Source: Eledone cirrhosa (lineage: Eukaryota). Taken from it: DNA of 64,000 bases. Position 1 is the stretch's first letter. Each line of letters starts with the position of its first letter. Of the stretch, positions 22,695 to 35,000 are shown piece after piece. Position numbers and translations under genes: made by a program. Location of the stretch: contig OZ024741.1 in the NCBI GenBank assembly GCA_964016885.1, positions 163,432,001 through 163,496,000 of the forward strand, read 5' to 3'. Below the pieces are notes generated by a model. That model did not search any database and was not told the DNA's origin. It saw only the letters and a program-made list of their open reading frames with translations.

Positions 22695-23261
22695 GTTATT
22701 CCGGGTTGAATCGGAGGTAACCACTGTAAGTAAGGTACTCAATACATAGCAGAGTATAAAAGTTTTAATATAGATGAGATTCCCCAGGACTAGAACTGTT
22801 TCATTCTTTAGAAATCATCAGGAATCTGGCTTTCCAAATATAAATGTTGTATTTATAGCTCTTTTCAGGTGGTAGGAGAGGGTGGGGAGTGGAATGGGTA
22901 GAGGTCATTGGTTGATAGAAAGGGAATTCATTAAAATCTAATTCTTTAAAGCTTTAATTTATATTTAGAGTGACAAAGGCAGAAAGAATTCTATAAACAA
23001 GTTCTGAATGGAGTGCCACTGCTTATTTTTAAGTTTCTCTTAAGCTAACAAGCCTATATTTCAGGTGTCTATAAGATCGTTAGGGTGTCGGTCATGGTTG
23101 ATGGATTTAAAACCTAATTCTTTAAAGTTCTACTTAGAGTGACAAAGGCCATGAGAATTCTATAAAAGAGTCCAACATATTGGGTGCCTATCATCTCATT
23201 ATCTTGAAATTTCTCTTAAGCTATATTCCAGGTGTCTACAGACACATTCACCTACACACAA

Positions 23262-23413
<152 letters not shown>

Positions 23414-25345: not shown

Positions 25346-25440
<95 letters not shown>

Positions 25441-25948
25441 GCGTGTGTGTGTTTGTGCGTAGGTGAATGTGTCTGTAGACACCTGGAATATAGCTTAAGA
25501 GAAATTTGAAGATAATGATATGATAGGCACCCAATATTTTGGACTGGTTTATAGAATTCTCATGGCCTTTGTCACTCTAAGTAGAACTTTAAAGAATTAG
25601 GTTTTAAATCCATCAACCATGACCGACACCCTAACGATCTTATAGACACCTGAAATATAGGCATTGTTAGCTTAAGAGAAACTTAAAAATAAGCAGTGGC
25701 ACTCCATTCTGAACTTGTTTATAGAATTCTTTCTGCCTTTGTCACTCTAAATATAAATTAAAGCTTTAAAGAATTAGATTTTAATGAATTCCCTTTCTAT
25801 CAACCAATGACCTCTACCCATTCCACTCCCCACCCTCTCCTACCACCTGAAAAGAGCTATAAATGCAACATTTATATTTGGAAAGCCAGATTCCTGATGA
25901 TTTCTAAAGAATGAATCTCATCTATATTAAAACTATATATATATATAT

Positions 25949-26480: not shown

Positions 26481-26620
26481 AAGACCTCTCGGCCTTGCTA
26501 CCTTTCTTCCTTTTTTATTTTTAAAGAAGCGCATATGGCACTGCTTTGCAACCTGTCCGGTCGGGAGGGAGGTTAGTACAATCATTCTATCGGATAGTTT
26601 GATGTTACTAACCTCCCTCC
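26481..26620. repeat. Left inverted repeat with palindromic hairpin A
   Basis: GGAGGGAGGTTAGTACAATCA-TTCTATCGGATAGTT-TGATGTTACTAACCTCCCTCC, preceded by an arm complementary to 30107-30181. Confidence 0.85.
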
Positions 26621-26772
26621 GTCTGTCTGTTTGTCTGTCCGTATGTACGTCCGTCTGTCTGTCCTTTGGTCTCTCTGTCTGTCCGTTGGTCCGTCTATCT
26701 GTCCGTCTGTCCGTCCGTCCGTCTGTCTGTATGTCCGTCAGTCCGCTAGTCTGTATATCCGTCTGTCTGTCC
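26621..26772. repeat. Degenerate (GTCY)n tetranucleotide tract
   Basis: Seen directly in the sequence; tracts of this kind are typical of DINE-1/Helentron-associated elements. Confidence 0.8.
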
Positions 26773-26977
26773 TTTGCCTATCCGCTAAACGTCTAGTTGC
26801 ATTCCTCCACCTCCCTCTCTCCCACGATTCCGTTCGCGTCAAAGATGCAGTGCCACATTAGCGAAATCAGATAAGTGGGTCAGTAGGATATCATATTACA
26901 AAACATGTTCAGACTTGTTTATACAAGTTTAAACCAGTTACAGTTTGAATGAAATTAAGCAGAGTCAGCATGAATTT

Positions 26978-27020
26978 GATTGGCTAATAGAAATTTAGGC
27001 GGGAATAAGATATATAAATA
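26978..27020 (+). promoter_or_regulatory. Putative viral Pol II promoter
   Basis: Inverted CCAAT (GATTGGCT), a GC/E2F-like box TTTAGGCGGGAA and a TATA box TATATAAATA, about 90 nt upstream of ATG 27112. Confidence 0.6.
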
Positions 27021-27111
27021 CGATAGACAAAGAGACTTGTTACCACTCAGCACAGGCAGGAAGAAATGAAGAACGCTACTCCGTCGACTTAGAAGCAATA
27101 TACCAACAAAA

Positions 27112-27165
27112 ATGAACTACGAAGACTTAAAGCTGAGAGACGCACAAATGTTAAGCGAGTTAGAA
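27112..27165 (+). CDS. Putative NS1 leader exon (MNYEDLKLRDAQMLSELE)
   Basis: AAAAATG start context. A phase-0 consensus donor, GAA|GTAAGT at 27166, matches the frame after the acceptor TTACAG| at 28790. Confidence 0.5.
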
Positions 27166-27172
27166 GTAAGTT

Positions 27173-27541
27173 ATGCCTTTACATTTACCATTTTATAAAT
27201 ATTGTGGGCCTTTCACAGATAACTTGATGAAAAGCCGATTAATGAATTAGACGAATGTTGTCACGAACACGATTTACAATACGGGAATGAATCGATAGAT
27301 GATAGGGATGCAGATAGAGAATTAATAGAGTGCACCAAGAAAGTTGACGGAGTAGCTTCGTTTATAGTGAGACAGGCAATTAATAGTAAATTACTAATGT
27401 CACCTATATTATATTAAAAAAAAAAGAAAAATAGAACAGAATCAGTCTAAGAAGAATCAAGATAGTTGCGACGCAGACATAGAATACGACGAGGACTTTA
27501 AGACACAAGACAGTGGTATAGAATCATAACAAGATACAGAC
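27173..27541 (+). pseudogene. VP1-unique region with parvoviral phospholipase A2 domain (frameshifted)
   Basis: MPLHLPFYKYCGPFTDN, then a 1-nt shift at about 27222, then LDEKPINELDECCHEHDLQY..ADRELI. This gives the YxGP Ca-loop and the HDxxY catalytic motif. A second shift in the A-run at about 27416 and a TAA at 27527 separate it from the capsid ORF. Confidence 0.85.
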
Positions 27542-28798
27542 ATGGGGGATCCACACGTAGGGCCGTCACCAGGGGGAAGCGTAGCTATGTCACAAGGCGA
27601 TGTACCTCCGACAACAGGAGATATAAATCCTATAATATCTAAAAAGATTTCGAGAACATTTGTACATTACGTTAACTGTTTCGATCAACCGTTCGATACG
27701 GCGAAGTATAAAAAGAAAGATGGTGAATATTTAGAATTAGAAATAGATCACAGAGCAATGGTAATACCATACTACTATTTAAAAGTAAGCATGACTATTG
27801 CAGAGTTACAAACATATTTAACACCGGCAAACAATTTCAGAATTAAGTCGTGCGGATATCATATTTCAAATATAGTACCGTTATCAGATGAATTGGGGAC
27901 TTTACGGGGCACAACAACTACAAATACTACATTCAATACAAGGCCGTGGTTAACAACATATGTAGATACAAAATTTGCATTATTTCCAAACTCGACATAC
28001 GATATAGAAATACCAAATTATAGTTTCACAATTAATATACCGAGAACTAGAGAAGAGGGAAAATTAAAACACTCACATACTGGGAGATTAGTAAGAAAAG
28101 ATTGGTGGCTGTGGAACGATCAAAAAGCACCATCAGATACTTCTCAAGAAACTAACGCAGAACCTCTATTATCATATTTTAATACTGGAGATTGGAAACC
28201 GATATATGCGGGCCAAACGACGGCTTATACATGGATAAATAGATCACCCAGTTGGTTTAACCTCATGGGATATTATGCGTTTAGATGTAATTTCGATCCA
28301 CCGACTATTACTTTTCATAACGGATTGCCTACAGAGATTAATACATTGTCTGGAGGACAGAAATCACAATGGGCGCCAACATTAGCGGGTAAATGGTCAA
28401 GGGGTTTGGCAGTTGATAAACAGGCGGAAGAGGAAAATACTGTTAGATCACATTTAACTCAATTTCCTATCAATCCTTCTAATCCTCCGCCAATAGCATG
28501 TATAGACGGCATACCAATATTAGACTCACAAAACGCAATAGCAAAAATAACATTTATGTTAACAGTCACTTATACCTCAGAAATAGATTTCAAATATATA
28601 TTGGGTAGTCCACAAATGGTAGGATGGATGGCGTGGGGCAAAGACCATGCAATTATTCAAAATTCGGCTAAAACAAATATATGTAAATGGCCACAAGGTT
28701 TACGTAATTATGAAATTACACGAACACCAAAACACGACAGGCACTTCATTAATAGTAATATTACAACAACCTTCTTCATTTACATTACAGAAAACTAA
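27542..28798 (+). CDS. Parvovirus/densovirus-like major capsid protein
   Basis: Uninterrupted 418-aa T/N/P-rich ORF in frame with ATG 27173 of the PLA2 region and next to NS1. The segment IPYYYLKVSMTIAELQTYL..FRIKSCGYHIS resembles densovirus capsid strands (by eye). Confidence 0.78.
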   Translation: MGDPHVGPSPGGSVAMSQGDVPPTTGDINPIISKKISRTFVHYVNCFDQPFDTAKYKKKDGEYLELEIDHRAMVIPYYYLKVSMTIAELQTYLTPANNFRIKSCGYHISNIVPLSDELGTLRGTTTTNTTFNTRPWLTTYVDTKFALFPNSTYDIEIPNYSFTINIPRTREEGKLKHSHTGRLVRKDWWLWNDQKAPSDTSQETNAEPLLSYFNTGDWKPIYAGQTTAYTWINRSPSWFNLMGYYAFRCNFDPPTITFHNGLPTEINTLSGGQKSQWAPTLAGKWSRGLAVDKQAEEENTVRSHLTQFPINPSNPPPIACIDGIPILDSQNAIAKITFMLTVTYTSEIDFKYILGSPQMVGWMAWGKDHAIIQNSAKTNICKWPQGLRNYEITRTPKHDRHFINSNITTTFFIYITEN

Positions 28799-28811
28799 CC
28801 AAAAATGATAC

Positions 28812-30022
28812 ATGATGATATTTCCTTGGCTGAAAGAGAACGATTTCGAGTGGAACGAAGATGAAACTCCCTTTTTCGATACGAAACCGATTAAAACCAA
28901 CAAATATTGTCGTGACGAAGACATGTCGGAAACGAAAAACGTCTGGCACATGAACACTTTATGTAAATTACAAGAATTCATAGAAAAATACGACTGTTCC
29001 GTTATCTATCATCCAAAGGAGGCGAGAATATGCGATAAAAAGGAATGTAATTCTTACAATCATTTTCACATAGTATGGCTAGACACAGCAAGACCAGGCG
29101 AAAATCAAAAATTTAAATACATTCGAGCGACTTATTCAAAAGCTTGTTCGTTGAAACTGAAAATACCAGATTGTCAACGCATTAGATTTCCCAGTGCTAT
29201 GGCTAACTACCTCACACAAGAACCGCGTACGATAATTAAAGTCAGTAACGGACCGATTTTGCGACAATTCTCTTTTTGGTGTACAGCAGATTACATCCCA
29301 AAACCGACCAAAGAAGTAAAACCAGAAAATAGCGAAAAAGATGAGGAAAACGAACCGACTTTCAAATCGAGATCTGGGGCAACACTTACGTTGTTTAATT
29401 ACCTGAGGTACATGTTTACATCGAAAAACTTTCGCACAGATTACGAAATGAAACAGTTTTGGTTGACCCCAAAAAATAATGAAAATTTCATGAGAGCAAT
29501 ATCTCATCCTCAATACGAAAACGTAATGCGAAAAATAGAATGTGAAAAAATAAAAACGTTAGCCAAAACTTGGAGAGAGAAATTCAACAACATGAATTGG
29601 CAAATATTCAATGGTGGAGAATTTTTAGATCTTGAACACAGCATGATTGTATTTAAAACGATTATGTTAACCCAAAATCTTGACGAACAAGCATTTGTTC
29701 AAAATGTATGGGAACTATTAGAGAAAAAAAAAACAGAAAGAAATTTATTGGTATTACGCGGTTTACCAAATACTGGGAAATCAATGATAGCAATATCTAT
29801 TGGCGATATGTTCACTCATATCTCAACGATACAAGGTACAACAACTTTCCCGTTTCAAAATTTAATTAATATAGAATTAGGTCTAATGAGGAACCGAACT
29901 TTACCGTTGAAACACTTCAAACTTTCAAAAAACTTTCTGAAGGAGTAGATACGGAGGTTGCAGTCAAATACAAACTCGATCAGACTGTAAAACCAACGCC
30001 ATTAATCATAACAAATAATAAT
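28812..30022 (+). pseudogene. NS1: NS1/Rep: HUH endonuclease plus SF3 helicase, frameshifted and 3'-truncated
   Basis: HUH motif HFHIVW, motif 3 NYLTQ and Walker A GLPNTGKS. A 1-nt deletion at about 29888 hides Walker B LMEE, B' (FKKLSEG..VAVKYK) and motif C PLIITNN. The frame is cut by the hairpin repeat at 30023. Confidence 0.92.
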
Positions 30023-30310
30023 TGCCACCGGTCCGGTCGGGAGGGAGATTAGTACAATCATTCTATCGGATAGTTTGATTGTACTAACCTCCCTCCCTAC
30101 CGGACCGGTTGCAAAGCAGTGCCATATGCGCTTCTTTAAAAATAAAAAAAAGGAAGAAAGGTAGCAAGGCCGAGAGGTCTTGCTACCTTTCTTCCTTTTT
30201 TTAATTTTGTCTTAGTTCCAAACGCATATGGCACTGCTTTGCAGCCGGTCCGGTAGGGAGGGAGGTTAGTACAATCAAACTATCCGATAGAATGATTGTA
30301 CTAACCTCCC
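30023..30310. repeat. Right compound palindrome: hairpin A - hairpin B - hairpin A
   Basis: Hairpin A at 30023-30131; hairpin B (AAGGAAGAAAGGTAGCAAG-GCCGAGAGGT-CTTGCTACCTTTCTTCCTT) at about 30150-30198; hairpin A in the opposite form at 30223-30310. Confidence 0.9.
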
Positions 30311-30431
30311 TATTTTTTTTTTATTCATTTGTATGAAATCATCAAGAATGCCCTGATGATTTCATATAAATGAAGCAATTTTAGTCCTGTAGAAACCATT
30401 TCTATATTAAATTTTCATTATATATATATAT

Positions 30432-30966
30432 TTTTCTTCTTCGCCCACTTGTTCCTGAGAGGGTCGTGGGGCCAGAGTTCTCAAACACTCCCTCTAGCGT
30501 GTCTTGTCAGAAACAACCATCTCCAACTGATCCGGTTCGATCCTTAAGCATGACCAGACATGCTCATTGATGTTATCCAACGATCTTGGTTGGGGTCTAC
30601 CGCAGGGTCTCTGACCAGTTGGTTTTGCCCGTTAAATACATCCAGCGATTCTTTCCCAAGACATTCTAGCCCATAGTATCGGAGTTGTGATATCTCAATT
30701 CGGAGAAGTAGTGGCTCTACCTGGAGTGACTCTCTGATCTCCGAGCTACGCACTCTATTGGGTAATGTTACTCCAAAGACCCTTCGGAGGAATCCCATTC
30801 TGGTCGCTTGTGTTTGTGATTGTATTCTTTTGGTAATTACCCAAGATTCATGACCATACGTAAGGGTTGGCACAAAAACCAAATTGAAGATAGCGAGTTT
30901 TGCTTTTATGCTTACCTCCCTTCTAAGTACTGAATGTTGAAGCTGGTGCATTATTGCACCAGCTTT
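30432..30966 (-). mobile_element. RTE-clade LINE 3' fragment
   Basis: KAKLAIFNLVFVPTLTYGHESW..MGFLRRVFGVT..RVRSSEIRESLQVEPLLLRIEISQLR matches the RTE C-terminal region; GAAGAAGAAAA tail. Confidence 0.85.
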
Positions 30967-31172
30967 TACAATCAAACTATCCGATAGAATGATTGTACTA
31001 ACCTCCCTCCCGACCGGACCGGTTGCAAAGCAGTGCCATATGCACTTTGCAACCAGTTCGGTCGGGAGGGAGGTTAGTACAATCATTCTATCGGATAGTT
31101 TGATTGTACTAACCTCCCTCCCATCCGGACCGGTTGCAAAGCAGTGCCATATGCGTTTGGAACTAAGACAAA
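30967..31172. repeat. Two further hairpin A copies in opposite forms
   Basis: Copies at 30967-31043 and 31045-31155; the arm TTTGGAACTAAGACAAA is complementary to 30206-30222. Confidence 0.9.
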
Positions 31173-31750
31173 TGTCAACAAATCCTGTGTCCTCACTGCT
31201 CTCTTGTTCTTCTCTGAGACTTGGACCACACACGGGGATCATACCGCCTGCACGTTAACGCCCGCCCTCTGCCTCCGACCAGCCTTCCGTCGCCGATGCG
31301 TGTTCCGCCGATGATGCGTGCCGAGTCCGCCGCCGCCGACCGGTGTGGCTGCCGGGGATTCCAGCCAACGACGACGCCCGAACAGCGGCGGATTGATTCT
31401 TCTTCTATATCTCTTTCTCACTTTCTTTCTTCGGAAGAAATCGTCTGTTTCGATCTGGAAAGTAACGGATTCAGCCAGTAGGACGACGCCATCAGTTGTT
31501 AAAGGTCATGTACTTTTGTCATATTTGTTCTCTTATGTTGTGGGTAACCCATCAAATCTTGCGGGTTAATCAAATTTCGATAGGTTTACGAATATTTCAG
31601 AAGATATATTCACATGATATTACAAGGCAGCTGACCTAGATAACAGTGCATAGCTTTGTATTTTCTGAACCATGCCACCACAGTATCATATTTGATGTTT
31701 TCACTTGGTGAGAGTATTGTCTTGATGAGAATATCTACCGATATTGGTAG

Positions 31751-31820
<70 letters not shown>

Positions 31821-31856
31821 TGTGTGTGTGTGTGTGTATATGGTCAATAACCGATA

Positions 31857-32050
31857 GCGCATATGGCACTGCTTGGCAACCGGTCCGGTAGGGAGGGAGG
31901 TTAGTACAATCAAACTATCCGATAGAATGATTGTACTAACCTCTCTCCCGACCGCACCGGTTGCAAAGCAGTGCCATATGCGCTTTGCAACCGGTCCGGG
32001 CGGGAGGGAGGTTAGTACAATCATTCTATCCGATAGAATGATTGTACTAA
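31857..32050. repeat. Two further hairpin A copies
   Basis: Copies at 31857-31983 and 31983-32050; the latter has a fully symmetric tip. Confidence 0.9.
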
Positions 32051-32051
32051 C

Positions 32052-35000
32052 ATATGCACGCATCTCGGACATGCCTGGCTGACGGCACCTCCATGCCTGT
32101 AGAGTTTATCCCGAACTGGCAAAGCTCCTCGGTAGCACTGCCAGGCCAGGGATTTCTGGAATTTATCCATAGGCCCCGGCCCGAAAGTTCTTCCGAAGAG
32201 ATTGGCTAGTTGATTTTCGTCGACGCCTAAAGTTCCCCCAAGTACGTCGTCGCTCTTCCCCTCCACTAATCCTCTATAGAACGCCAAGATTGAGTTTCCA
32301 CCGATCACATTGCCCGATTGGTCGAGGGCTGTGAGTGCCTGAAGACATTCCACTCTCCAAGCTCGCCTTCTCGGTCTTCGCTTGTCCCAGGACTGCAGCT
32401 CTGTAAAGGAGACGAGCTGGGGAAAGACGCGTCTAGCAAACGGCGACCAGATCTGATCACCGTCGAGGAAGAGGTGGAGATGTCGTAGCCTGAGCGCGTG
32501 TCTGCGCATCATCAGCCACGGCACGCCCAGCCCTCCACGTAGCGGGTGTTGAAAGCAGATGGACCGCCGGACCATCGGAGCGCGTCCCTTCCACAAAAAG
32601 CGAAAGAGCAAACGCTCCAGCGCAGTCAGGTGAGGCTTAGGATTAGGTACGACGATCAGGCGGTAGTAGATGACGAACGCTATGTACGCGTTAGCCACCT
32701 CTGCTCGACCTTTCAGCGATAGCTTTCTCTCGGCCCATTTCTGGGTGAGGGAAGCCACCTTGCTCGTCACCTCGTTCCAGTTTTTCTCCATATGGAGGTC
32801 CGGCCCGAACCAGACCCCGAGTAATTTAACCGGTCCGTCCGTCCAACGCCCCACGACGCTGTCGGGCGGCATGGACTTGCCTCTCCAGGTGCCGAGCTGC
32901 AAGCCCACCGACTTTTCTTGGTTTATCTTTGCTCCTGTTACCGCTTCGTATTCTTTGAGAGCGGTGCCGAGCATCTGGACGAGTCTGGTGCTCGACACCA
33001 CCACGGTGACGTCGTCGACGTAAGCCGTTCGGATTTCCCGCATGCTAGTTCGCGAGGGACGCTCCTCATCGCCCAGAGTTTGTGCAGTAACACCTCAAGA
33101 GCCATTACGTACAAGGGGGACAACCTGGCGGACCGAGTGCATGATGCTGAGCGGCTGCGACAGGTGACCGTTCACCTTCACATCTGAAAACGGGCCCTAA
33201 ACCTGCTGCCTCGAGGACCGCCGCCAAGTATCGATGGTCGAACTTATCGAATGCTTTGGATTGATCCAAGTTGATCAGCCCCCCCCCCGTGCCAGCATCC
33301 TTAACCACCCTCTCTATGATGTATCGCATGAGGTGGAGGTTGTCGTGTATGGATCTGTCCGGAATGGCGCATGTCTGCGCCTCTCCCACCAGACCCTTGA
33401 CGACAAGCGCCAACCTCGTTGCTAATACCTTGCCCAAAATCTTGATCTCTGCGTTTAGCAGGGTTATGGGTCTGAAATTATCGATAACATCCCCCTTCTT
33501 CGTGTCTTTTCTCAGCAGCGCCACTGCTCCCCGGCTTACAAAACTGGGAATGCTCCCGTTCTGCTGCCAGTTGCAGTAGACGTCACTGAACAAGTCTGGC
33601 ATAAATTGATAAAGCTCGTAGGGCAGACCATCCAAACCTGGCGATTTACCCCTCGAGCAGTTAGGAATCGCTTCCCGTATTTCACCGGCTGTTATTGGCT
33701 TTTCGTAACACTGTGCCGCGGTCGTCGAGAGCCGAGGCAGTCCGTCGAGGTATGCACTGAAGTCCATGCCCCGATCCGGCCCGCCGCTGATCCCGAACAT
33801 TTCAACAAAGCGCTGCTAAAAAGCTTCTCACATCTGCTCGTGTTCGAGCAACACTCACCCGTTTTGGTCAGACAAGGACCGAATTGTGGCTTTGTTGCCA
33901 CGTCGCGCCTCTTCCACCGGGGCCCATTGGACAGCTTTTGTCCCCTCGTGTTTCAGAGCACGCGCTCTAGCTCTGACAACGCAGCCTTCGTGTTTTGCGT
34001 TGAAGAAATGGTCGAGTGCCAATCTCGCCGCAAGCACGTCGGTTGAGATGCCTGTCCTAAACGCCTCTTCTATCGTTCTGACTAGCTCTCCCTCTACTCT
34101 ATTTTCCTCTATCACTAGTCCTTTGCTAAACCTCATCGACTCTACTTTAATTGCCCTTTTCAGGGCGAACCACCATCTGTTGTTGACGATCGCTCCCGTC
34201 AACGTCCGCTTAACTAATACGCTATTCCGGTCTCTGTAAGCTTTGCGTGACGGAAAAGACGCGTTCAGCTTCCAGTAACCGGGCCCTTGTCTATGAAGTC
34301 TGTCTATGTCGATCTCACAGATCACAAATTTGTGGTCTGTGTAGTCGACTATTTTAAATTGTGGACAACTTATACTAGCCTTATCCAGTTCTCTGCAGAA
34401 TACCCTATCGAGATACGATCTGGATGACCCGATGCGGTTTGTCCATGTCCACATTGGCACATCCGGGTGATCCAGTCGATACCTGTCAGACAGTTCAAAA
34501 CGTCTGAGCAGGTTGGTGAGGCTTTTGCACCCTCCTCCCCTATCCACTAGCCCCACACAATCCCAGCGTGCATCCAAGATACCCACTAACACTAAAAGCG
34601 GGACGTTCCAAGAAAGGTCTCTAGACGTCTGAAGAAATCTGGCCGTCCTGCCCCTGTTTGGGCGTAGACGGCTACTAGCGTGAAAGCATTGCCTTCGCTG
34701 CTGGTCACGTCCAGCACCACCGACTTACCTTCTGGGTCTAGGAAGATGGCTAGTATGGCGAGATCCAAGCTTCTCCGAAAAAGCACGGCAACCCCTCCCC
34801 CGATCCTGGACGGCTGGGAGATGCGTATACATCGTAGCCGCCGAAGATCGGTGCGAAGGCTTGTGCTTCGGAGATTCTGGTCTCGCTGATGGCCACCACA
34901 TCTATGTTTAGTGACCTGAGGTCGTTGAGCAGGTGACCCTTTTCCAAGATGACCTCAGGCCACGTGCATTTATACTGCCTATTCTGAGTACAGCCATGTT

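Follow-up and report, generated by a model that had tools for sequence, protein, structure and literature searches.

Analysis of a 64,000-nucleotide stretch of Eledone cirrhosa DNA (hereafter the window) shows an integrated, damaged copy of a parvo-like virus that is ~3.9 kb long and has hairpin ends; its capsid gene (VP) very probably lies between a short first and a long second exon of the NS1 gene. Splicing of a 1.6-kb intron would give rise to the NS1 mRNA and its retention to the capsid mRNA, with one left promoter likely. The order in the virus is NS exon 1, VP, NS exon 2, and all three are on the plus strand in the window (Table 1). A preliminary description of this DNA had placed a promoter, a VP1-unique region (VP1u) with phospholipase (PLA2) domain, a 418-amino acid capsid and NS1 on one strand, and all of these parts lie on the plus strand where it had put them. 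It had also proposed that VP before NS1 is a native monosense layout, which is correct as to the order but incomplete, since this order is explained by the nesting of VP in an NS1 intron, with the NS1 start upstream of VP. The element was given too short a span, as viral hairpin copies extend from 26481 to 32051.

Table 1. Features of the viral copy, in positions of the window, with the evidence for each
Feature	Position	Strand	Evidence
Inverted copy of right-end terminal sequence and hairpin (integration rearrangement)	26481..26620		91.5% to 30040-30181 inverted; GCACTG..CCGG..(GGGA)n motif
(GTCY)n tandem filler from hairpin copy to left end; probably non-viral	26621..26771		unmatched in 20 other loci
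Left terminal hairpin remnant	26771..26823	+	82-86% to left-end hairpins of L041, L047, L052, L058, L059
Likely promoter: reverse CCAAT 26979-26983, GC box 26998-27003, TATA 27011-27017	26979..27019	+	sequence; TATA-like box similarly placed in most aligned copies
NS1 exon 1, 18 codons, conserved ATG	27112..27165	+	copy alignment, genome-wide pattern
Predicted intron, 1625 nt, GTAAGT ... pyrimidine tract CAG, holding the whole VP gene	27166..28790	+	conserved sites; matching L044 intron skipped in X9, X10, X18
VP1-unique region: PLA2 and basic NLS-like stretch; two frameshifts and one stop	27173..27541	+	Pfam, frames; single open 522-538-aa VP1 in other copies
Major capsid ORF, 418 aa, modelled single jelly roll; final ~20 codons beyond usual end	27542..28798	+	sequence profile, fold match
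NS1 exon 2 (HUH motifs, SF3 helicase); stop 28806-28808, internal ATG 28812, frameshift near 29890, ends ~30021	28791..30021	+	Pfam, frames
Right-end terminal region: hairpin A 30022-30133, A/T-flanked hairpin B 30140-30205, second hairpin A 30220-30311	30022..30311		folds; kin hairpin at L044 tail-tail junction
More hairpin A copies beside host LINE-like fragment	30967..31158		sequence comparison
More hairpin A copies abutting host LINE RT fragment	31856..32051		sequence comparison

The reading frame that begins at the ATG at 28812 matches Parvo_NS1 (PF01057) above the cut-off (E 2.7e-6), and a second Parvo_NS1 piece lies past the frameshift and extends to ~30021. NS1 carries the SF3 helicase expected of Parvoviridae, with AAV Rep as the best PDB matches (E 5e-12), and HFH and downstream Tyr motifs can be recognised by eye in the HUH region of the window copy and its relatives, a region that gave neither a profile nor a structure match. 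Within VP1u, the parvoviral PLA2 domain (PF08398) was detected at E 7e-5 and 23.4 bits, just below the cut-off of 23.9. A Pfam search with the 418-amino acid open reading frame gave nothing; a language-model search indicated Cossaviricota capsids, though its recognition value was low. By sequence, this frame matched the capsid of Penaeus monodon metallodensovirus (PmMDV) with E 5e-4 when compared alone and with E 9.5e-9, over 57 residues, as a 16-sequence profile. The preliminary description had suggested structure prediction on VP, expecting a single jelly roll; the resulting model (mean pLDDT 54.5) has a parvoviral capsid fold: parvovirus capsids occupy the first 20 VIA rows (Z 9.9-15.6, falling to 7.8 in the row below) and every match listed by Foldseek (best E 5e-9). 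Judged by this model, the 418-amino acid product is a parvoviral capsid protein with a single jelly roll.

Searches of the animal's own genome (3.0 Gb) returned at least 52 NS and at least 55 VP matches, of which 45 NS and 54 VP matches were merged into 42 loci, with eight overlapping or adjoining rows left out. Both genes are present at 20 loci and at 19 of these VP precedes NS on one strand, the layout being read in contigs of the Eledone cirrhosa genome only. This search for independent VP-then-NS1 copies had been recommended beforehand and bears out the claimed order, with the proviso that four of the 19 loci are members of a single family (99.8-100% identical) and do not count as independent. 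The copies showing VP-then-NS share only 51-68% protein identity with the window copy, and amongst the compared copies identity is 58-83% for VP and 51-67% for NS, with a VP dN/dS of 0.11-0.27 and near-saturated NS dS. The low VP dN/dS indicates purifying selection, and such divergence is as expected of free-virus diversity. Copies with open frames encode a VP1 of 522-538 amino acids with PLA2 in frame and an NS of up to 549 amino acids, and the gap between VP and NS is 48-54 nt in four copies. The 13 nt noted previously between the capsid stop and the NS1 ATG are indeed present in the window but are a lesion artefact, because a frameshift near 28735 takes VP past its usual end. The absence of a hairpin between the two genes, also claimed previously, was confirmed in that no strong hairpin is present in 28601-28900. 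In every intact unit NS and VP are located on the same strand, unlike the ambisense arrangement of Densovirinae. Elsewhere in the genome, a second, much diverged HUH-like frame (28% to NS 64-137) directly follows NS1 at L045:5850-6500 and another weak NS-like stretch is found at L046:8063-8845; these possibly derive from other parvo-like lineages.

In the aligned copies, a stretch of 18 codons opening with a conserved ATG lies shortly before VP1. GT[AG]AGT follows it, with 7-10 nt left to the VP1 ATG, and a CAG with a pyrimidine tract occurs soon after the VP stop. When searched genome-wide, the exon-1 pattern gave 18 matches (seven of them in the near-identical family), all located before a VP1 start or a remnant of one, and the reversed-pattern control gave none. 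The GT[AG]AGT donor follows codon 18 in 16 of the 18 matches. A CAG acceptor in phase 0 with NS1 is present at 17 of the 18 VP ends examined, two rows of which represent one place, and the single miss carries an insertion. The predicted intron length in seven other copies, 1575-1660 nt, brackets that in the window. A diverged NS copy at L053:5500-5860 (G000 C841) has kept the acceptor, has no VP match upstream and is then fused to a mid-VP fragment.

The splice was predicted from the copy alignment before public runs were compared with copy L044. The joint 4171/5790 in L044 coincides to the base with the predicted 1618-nt intron, has GT..AG on the coding strand and was observed in assembled contigs from three of eight public runs (X9, X10 and X18, representing two studies and two organism labels); it is absent from the contigs of X1, X6, X7, X13 and X15. 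The shorter side of the joint spans only 29-30 nt, which is below the 31-nt bridging rule, and the assembled contigs give neither strand nor start, the runs being taken as RNA. The joint-bearing sequences derive from copies or viruses other than the window copy, in which a stop lies five codons past the acceptor. X6 and X7 contain colinear, intron-retaining contigs through the intron, and X15 (1381 million letters, likely DNA) contains a colinear contig across the acceptor without the joint. The excess of A>G/T>C changes in X18 compared with X15 (182:43 vs 135:90, p 2e-6) is consistent with RNA editing. A spliced DNA copy was rejected as the source of the joint, as none of the 18 exon-1 matches is joined to NS in DNA.

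We propose that both genes share one promoter at the left end and one poly(A) site downstream of NS1, with removal of the 1.6-kb intron providing the mRNA for NS1, its retention providing that for VP, and a shift to retention acting as an early-to-late switch. In unspliced RNA, exon 1 reads as a 28-29-codon frame and, because this overlaps the VP1 start out of frame, ribosomes would have to reach VP1 by leaky scanning, or by re-initiating beyond the exon-1 reading. Out-of-frame ATGs within VP1u number 1-4 compared with 3.5-5.4 expected, a mild depletion that in this weak test lends no support to leaky scanning. Shorter VPs might be initiated from conserved Met codons located about 228 and 354-366 nt downstream in VP. 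Each of the 17 anchors that carry the acceptor likewise has a conserved Met at the beginning of exon 2, and because of this internal ATG, NS1 is possibly also made without exon 1. The same Met would suit a native VP-then-NS genome with two promoters, with NS driven by a promoter inside the 3′ end of VP and started at the internal ATG, the splice being minor; a TATA-like string at 28595 in the window and the lack of the joint in five of the eight runs also agree with such an arrangement. We consider it unlikely, since the 18-codon exon, donor, acceptor and phase are kept across copies with saturated synonymous sites, and in X9 the contig with the joint (depth 16.3) is no shallower than the intron contig (12.1), depth being a weak measure.

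Copies L041-L044 and L048 (G000 C10, C14, C998 and C5) are 99.8-100% identical at four places on different contigs and include head-head and tail-tail fold-backs, which points to very recent integrations of one virus. A family of this kind, which appears to be transcribed and spliced, could also be expected of a host-resident, Rep-driven mobile element of parvoviral origin that has the same nested layout and is no longer infectious, and neither free virus, virion DNA nor relatives with context were found in the viral contigs and metagenome contigs searched. Such an element seems to us quite improbable, as purifying selection has kept the capsid and PLA2 in many copies that are deeply diverged, the copy ends are ragged and rearranged rather than uniform, and kin genes are present in distant hosts. 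In the integrated-virus model that we favour, diverse free viruses would have entered the germline repeatedly. At L050:2400-5600 a gypsy-like RT/RNase H/integrase frame (1178 amino acids) is followed, in frame, by an NS1 fragment, forming a virus-retrotransposon junction.

Upstream of VP, the units carry a branched left hairpin, present in both orientations, and a different right hairpin follows NS and an AATAAA signal. Copy L041 contains a head-head and L044 a tail-tail fold-back junction, and junctions of these types are the remains of rolling-hairpin concatemers of a linear genome. A core common to both ends, GCACTG..CCGG..(GGGA)n, is the putative NS1 binding and nicking region, and rolling-hairpin replication would involve binding of NS1 to the shared (GGGA)n repeats. 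The unit length between hairpins is 3.8-4.0 kb in the integrated copies L044, L046 and L047, in keeping with the hairpin-ended genomes of ~4-6 kb that characterise Parvoviridae. L046 and L047, two diverged full-length copies separated by 10 kb (G000 C12), both lie against one dispersed host repeat (27 exact matches), and direct repeats of about 150 and 370 nt flank them; a target preference or duplication at integration is possible. It is highly improbable, and largely refuted, that the copies are circular CRESS-like genomes or permuted pieces of a conventional NS-VP genome derived from a circle or a head-to-tail concatemer: NS is followed by VP within 400 nt at two loci (one of which carries VP-NS too) and direct repeats flank L046 and L047, but both NS-VP joins connect one mid-gene fragment to another, the direct repeats are host sequence, and the hairpins lie outside the VP-NS block, where they form the fold-back junctions, with no terminus between VP and NS in any copy, in agreement with the earlier judgement that a permuted concatemer junction was unlikely.

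In the window, the right-end hairpin is repeated among LINE fragments (Table 1). It was considered as a host MITE and as a dispersed host repeat, and both were rejected: all 12 window motif matches lie within 26571-32052, with the same core at viral ends elsewhere, and these 12 are among at least 13 matches in the genome. LINE-like fragments at 30374-30966 and 32021-33094 (the second with RVT_1, E 0.006) are interleaved with the viral hairpin copies, an arrangement that, by analogy, resembles the scrambled junctions of Rep-linked integration. The window also contains a 560-nt inverted duplication of a host repeat (22800-23359 and 25356-25915, 97.5% identical) and a 452-nt tandem array (57704-58908). 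The viral copy carries four frameshifts (near 27225, 27420-27440, 28735 and 29890) and two stops (27527 and 28806); its NS1 gene is cut at about 30021 and lacks roughly the final quarter. The window copy itself is dead and is older than the near-identical family. The preliminary description had counted few lesions and proposed a fairly recent integration; the copy is more damaged than this, and recent integration fits the 99.8-100% identical copies better.

Among 1.8 billion proteins searched with a profile, 1767 matched. In the SF3 helicase tree that had been called for (154 rows, midpoint root; rows covering <85% of the region, including the truncated frame of the window, were left out), the lineage forms its own clade of 23 sequences with a FastTree support of 0.97, the members of which are at least 45% identical to P0012, with none outside exceeding 38%. 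Named members of this clade are proteins from Octopus bimaculoides and Lamellibrachia satsuma. A PLA2-bearing capsid from Octopus vulgaris is 41% identical, and one 836-kb contig carries relatives of both NS and VP. Records of relatives in other assemblies are CAI9722210-15 (Octopus vulgaris), A0A0L8GWZ8 (O. bimaculoides) and KAI0231278.1 (Lamellibrachia). The sole named virus amongst 28 proteins looked up, two of them capsids, is the unclassified Turdus hortulorum parvoviridae sp., which falls outside the clade. Parvoviridae are described as having distinct NS and VP cassettes with NS on the left, and here VP is inside an NS1 intron. The lineage works like a parvovirus, and its formal membership of Parvoviridae would need a wider definition, as for AdSDV; it is not filed under any named subfamily. 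On balance, we lean towards the view that these are undescribed, subfamily-level parvoviruses of octopuses and other lophotrochozoans that are still circulating and integrating, in which nesting of the capsid gene in a Rep intron, with intron retention as the early-to-late switch, reverses both the gene arrangement and the splicing logic found in all described parvoviruses.

A whole capsid gene within a Rep intron breaks the rule, stated in reviews, of separate cassettes with NS left and VP right. The nested layout illustrates a way of adding a new capsid cassette that needs no second promoter and provides a one-junction model of NS/VP switching. These copies also outline a family of cephalopod DNA viruses, a group of hosts whose viruses are barely known, and the near-identical multi-locus family points to recent activity.

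In PmMDV, a member of the Metallovirinae, the gene order is NS-then-VP. Its capsid (PDB 6WH3) gives the best capsid-core sequence match to the lineage described here and a fold match of Z 11.4, and it shares with this lineage a marine invertebrate host and a ~4-kb genome. However, PmMDV lacks PLA2 and has 416-nt ITRs (PMC11357303), whereas the lineage has two unlike ends and PLA2 in the VP1 of copies and relatives, a domain that is absent from VP in Metallovirinae. The top fold matches are the capsids of Syngnathus scovelli chapparvovirus (PDB 9NEK) and Penaeus stylirostris densovirus (PstDV; 3N7X), with Z 15.6, rmsd 3.5 and 233 aligned residues and Foldseek E-values of 5e-9 and 4e-8, but identity is only 11-18% and they are described as having a single VP (PMC12115719). 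PstDV, unlike the lineage, is listed without PLA2 (PMC11357303), and the excerpts compared contain no nested layout for either virus.

NS fragments from Octopus bimaculoides (A0A0L8GWZ8, P0021 in our set, with 78% helicase identity) and Lamellibrachia appear in the supplement of Francois et al. 2016 (PMC5013282). As far as the available text of that study extends, these are NS fragments only, filed by best match to iteradensoviruses, without layout, termini or splicing. Precedents for rearranged layouts are provided by the Swazi bat megaparvovirus 1-like beetle lineage, in which a PLA2 ORF lies upstream of NS1 but NS1 still precedes VP (PMC13426907), and by AdSDV, which has a split genome with NS and VP apart (PMC10267136); in the parts of these two accounts at hand, VP is not nested in an NS intron. 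The preliminary description had allowed that the layout might already be known for a named genus, and no VP-before-NS or intron-nested parvovirus was found in the literature searched, which was drawn from outside the ICTV proposals and most subscription papers. Published accounts assign NS to the left and VP to the right in all parvoviruses (PMC11357303), as distinct cassettes (PMC10267136; PMC11357303). The closest parallel to the proposed expression strategy is in Boca-, Erythro- and Amdoparvovirus, where one left promoter is used and splicing selects NS or VP (PMC12298888). In those genera NS occupies the left half and the VP mRNA is formed by splicing NS out, whereas here the logic would be inverted, the NS mRNA being formed by splicing VP out.
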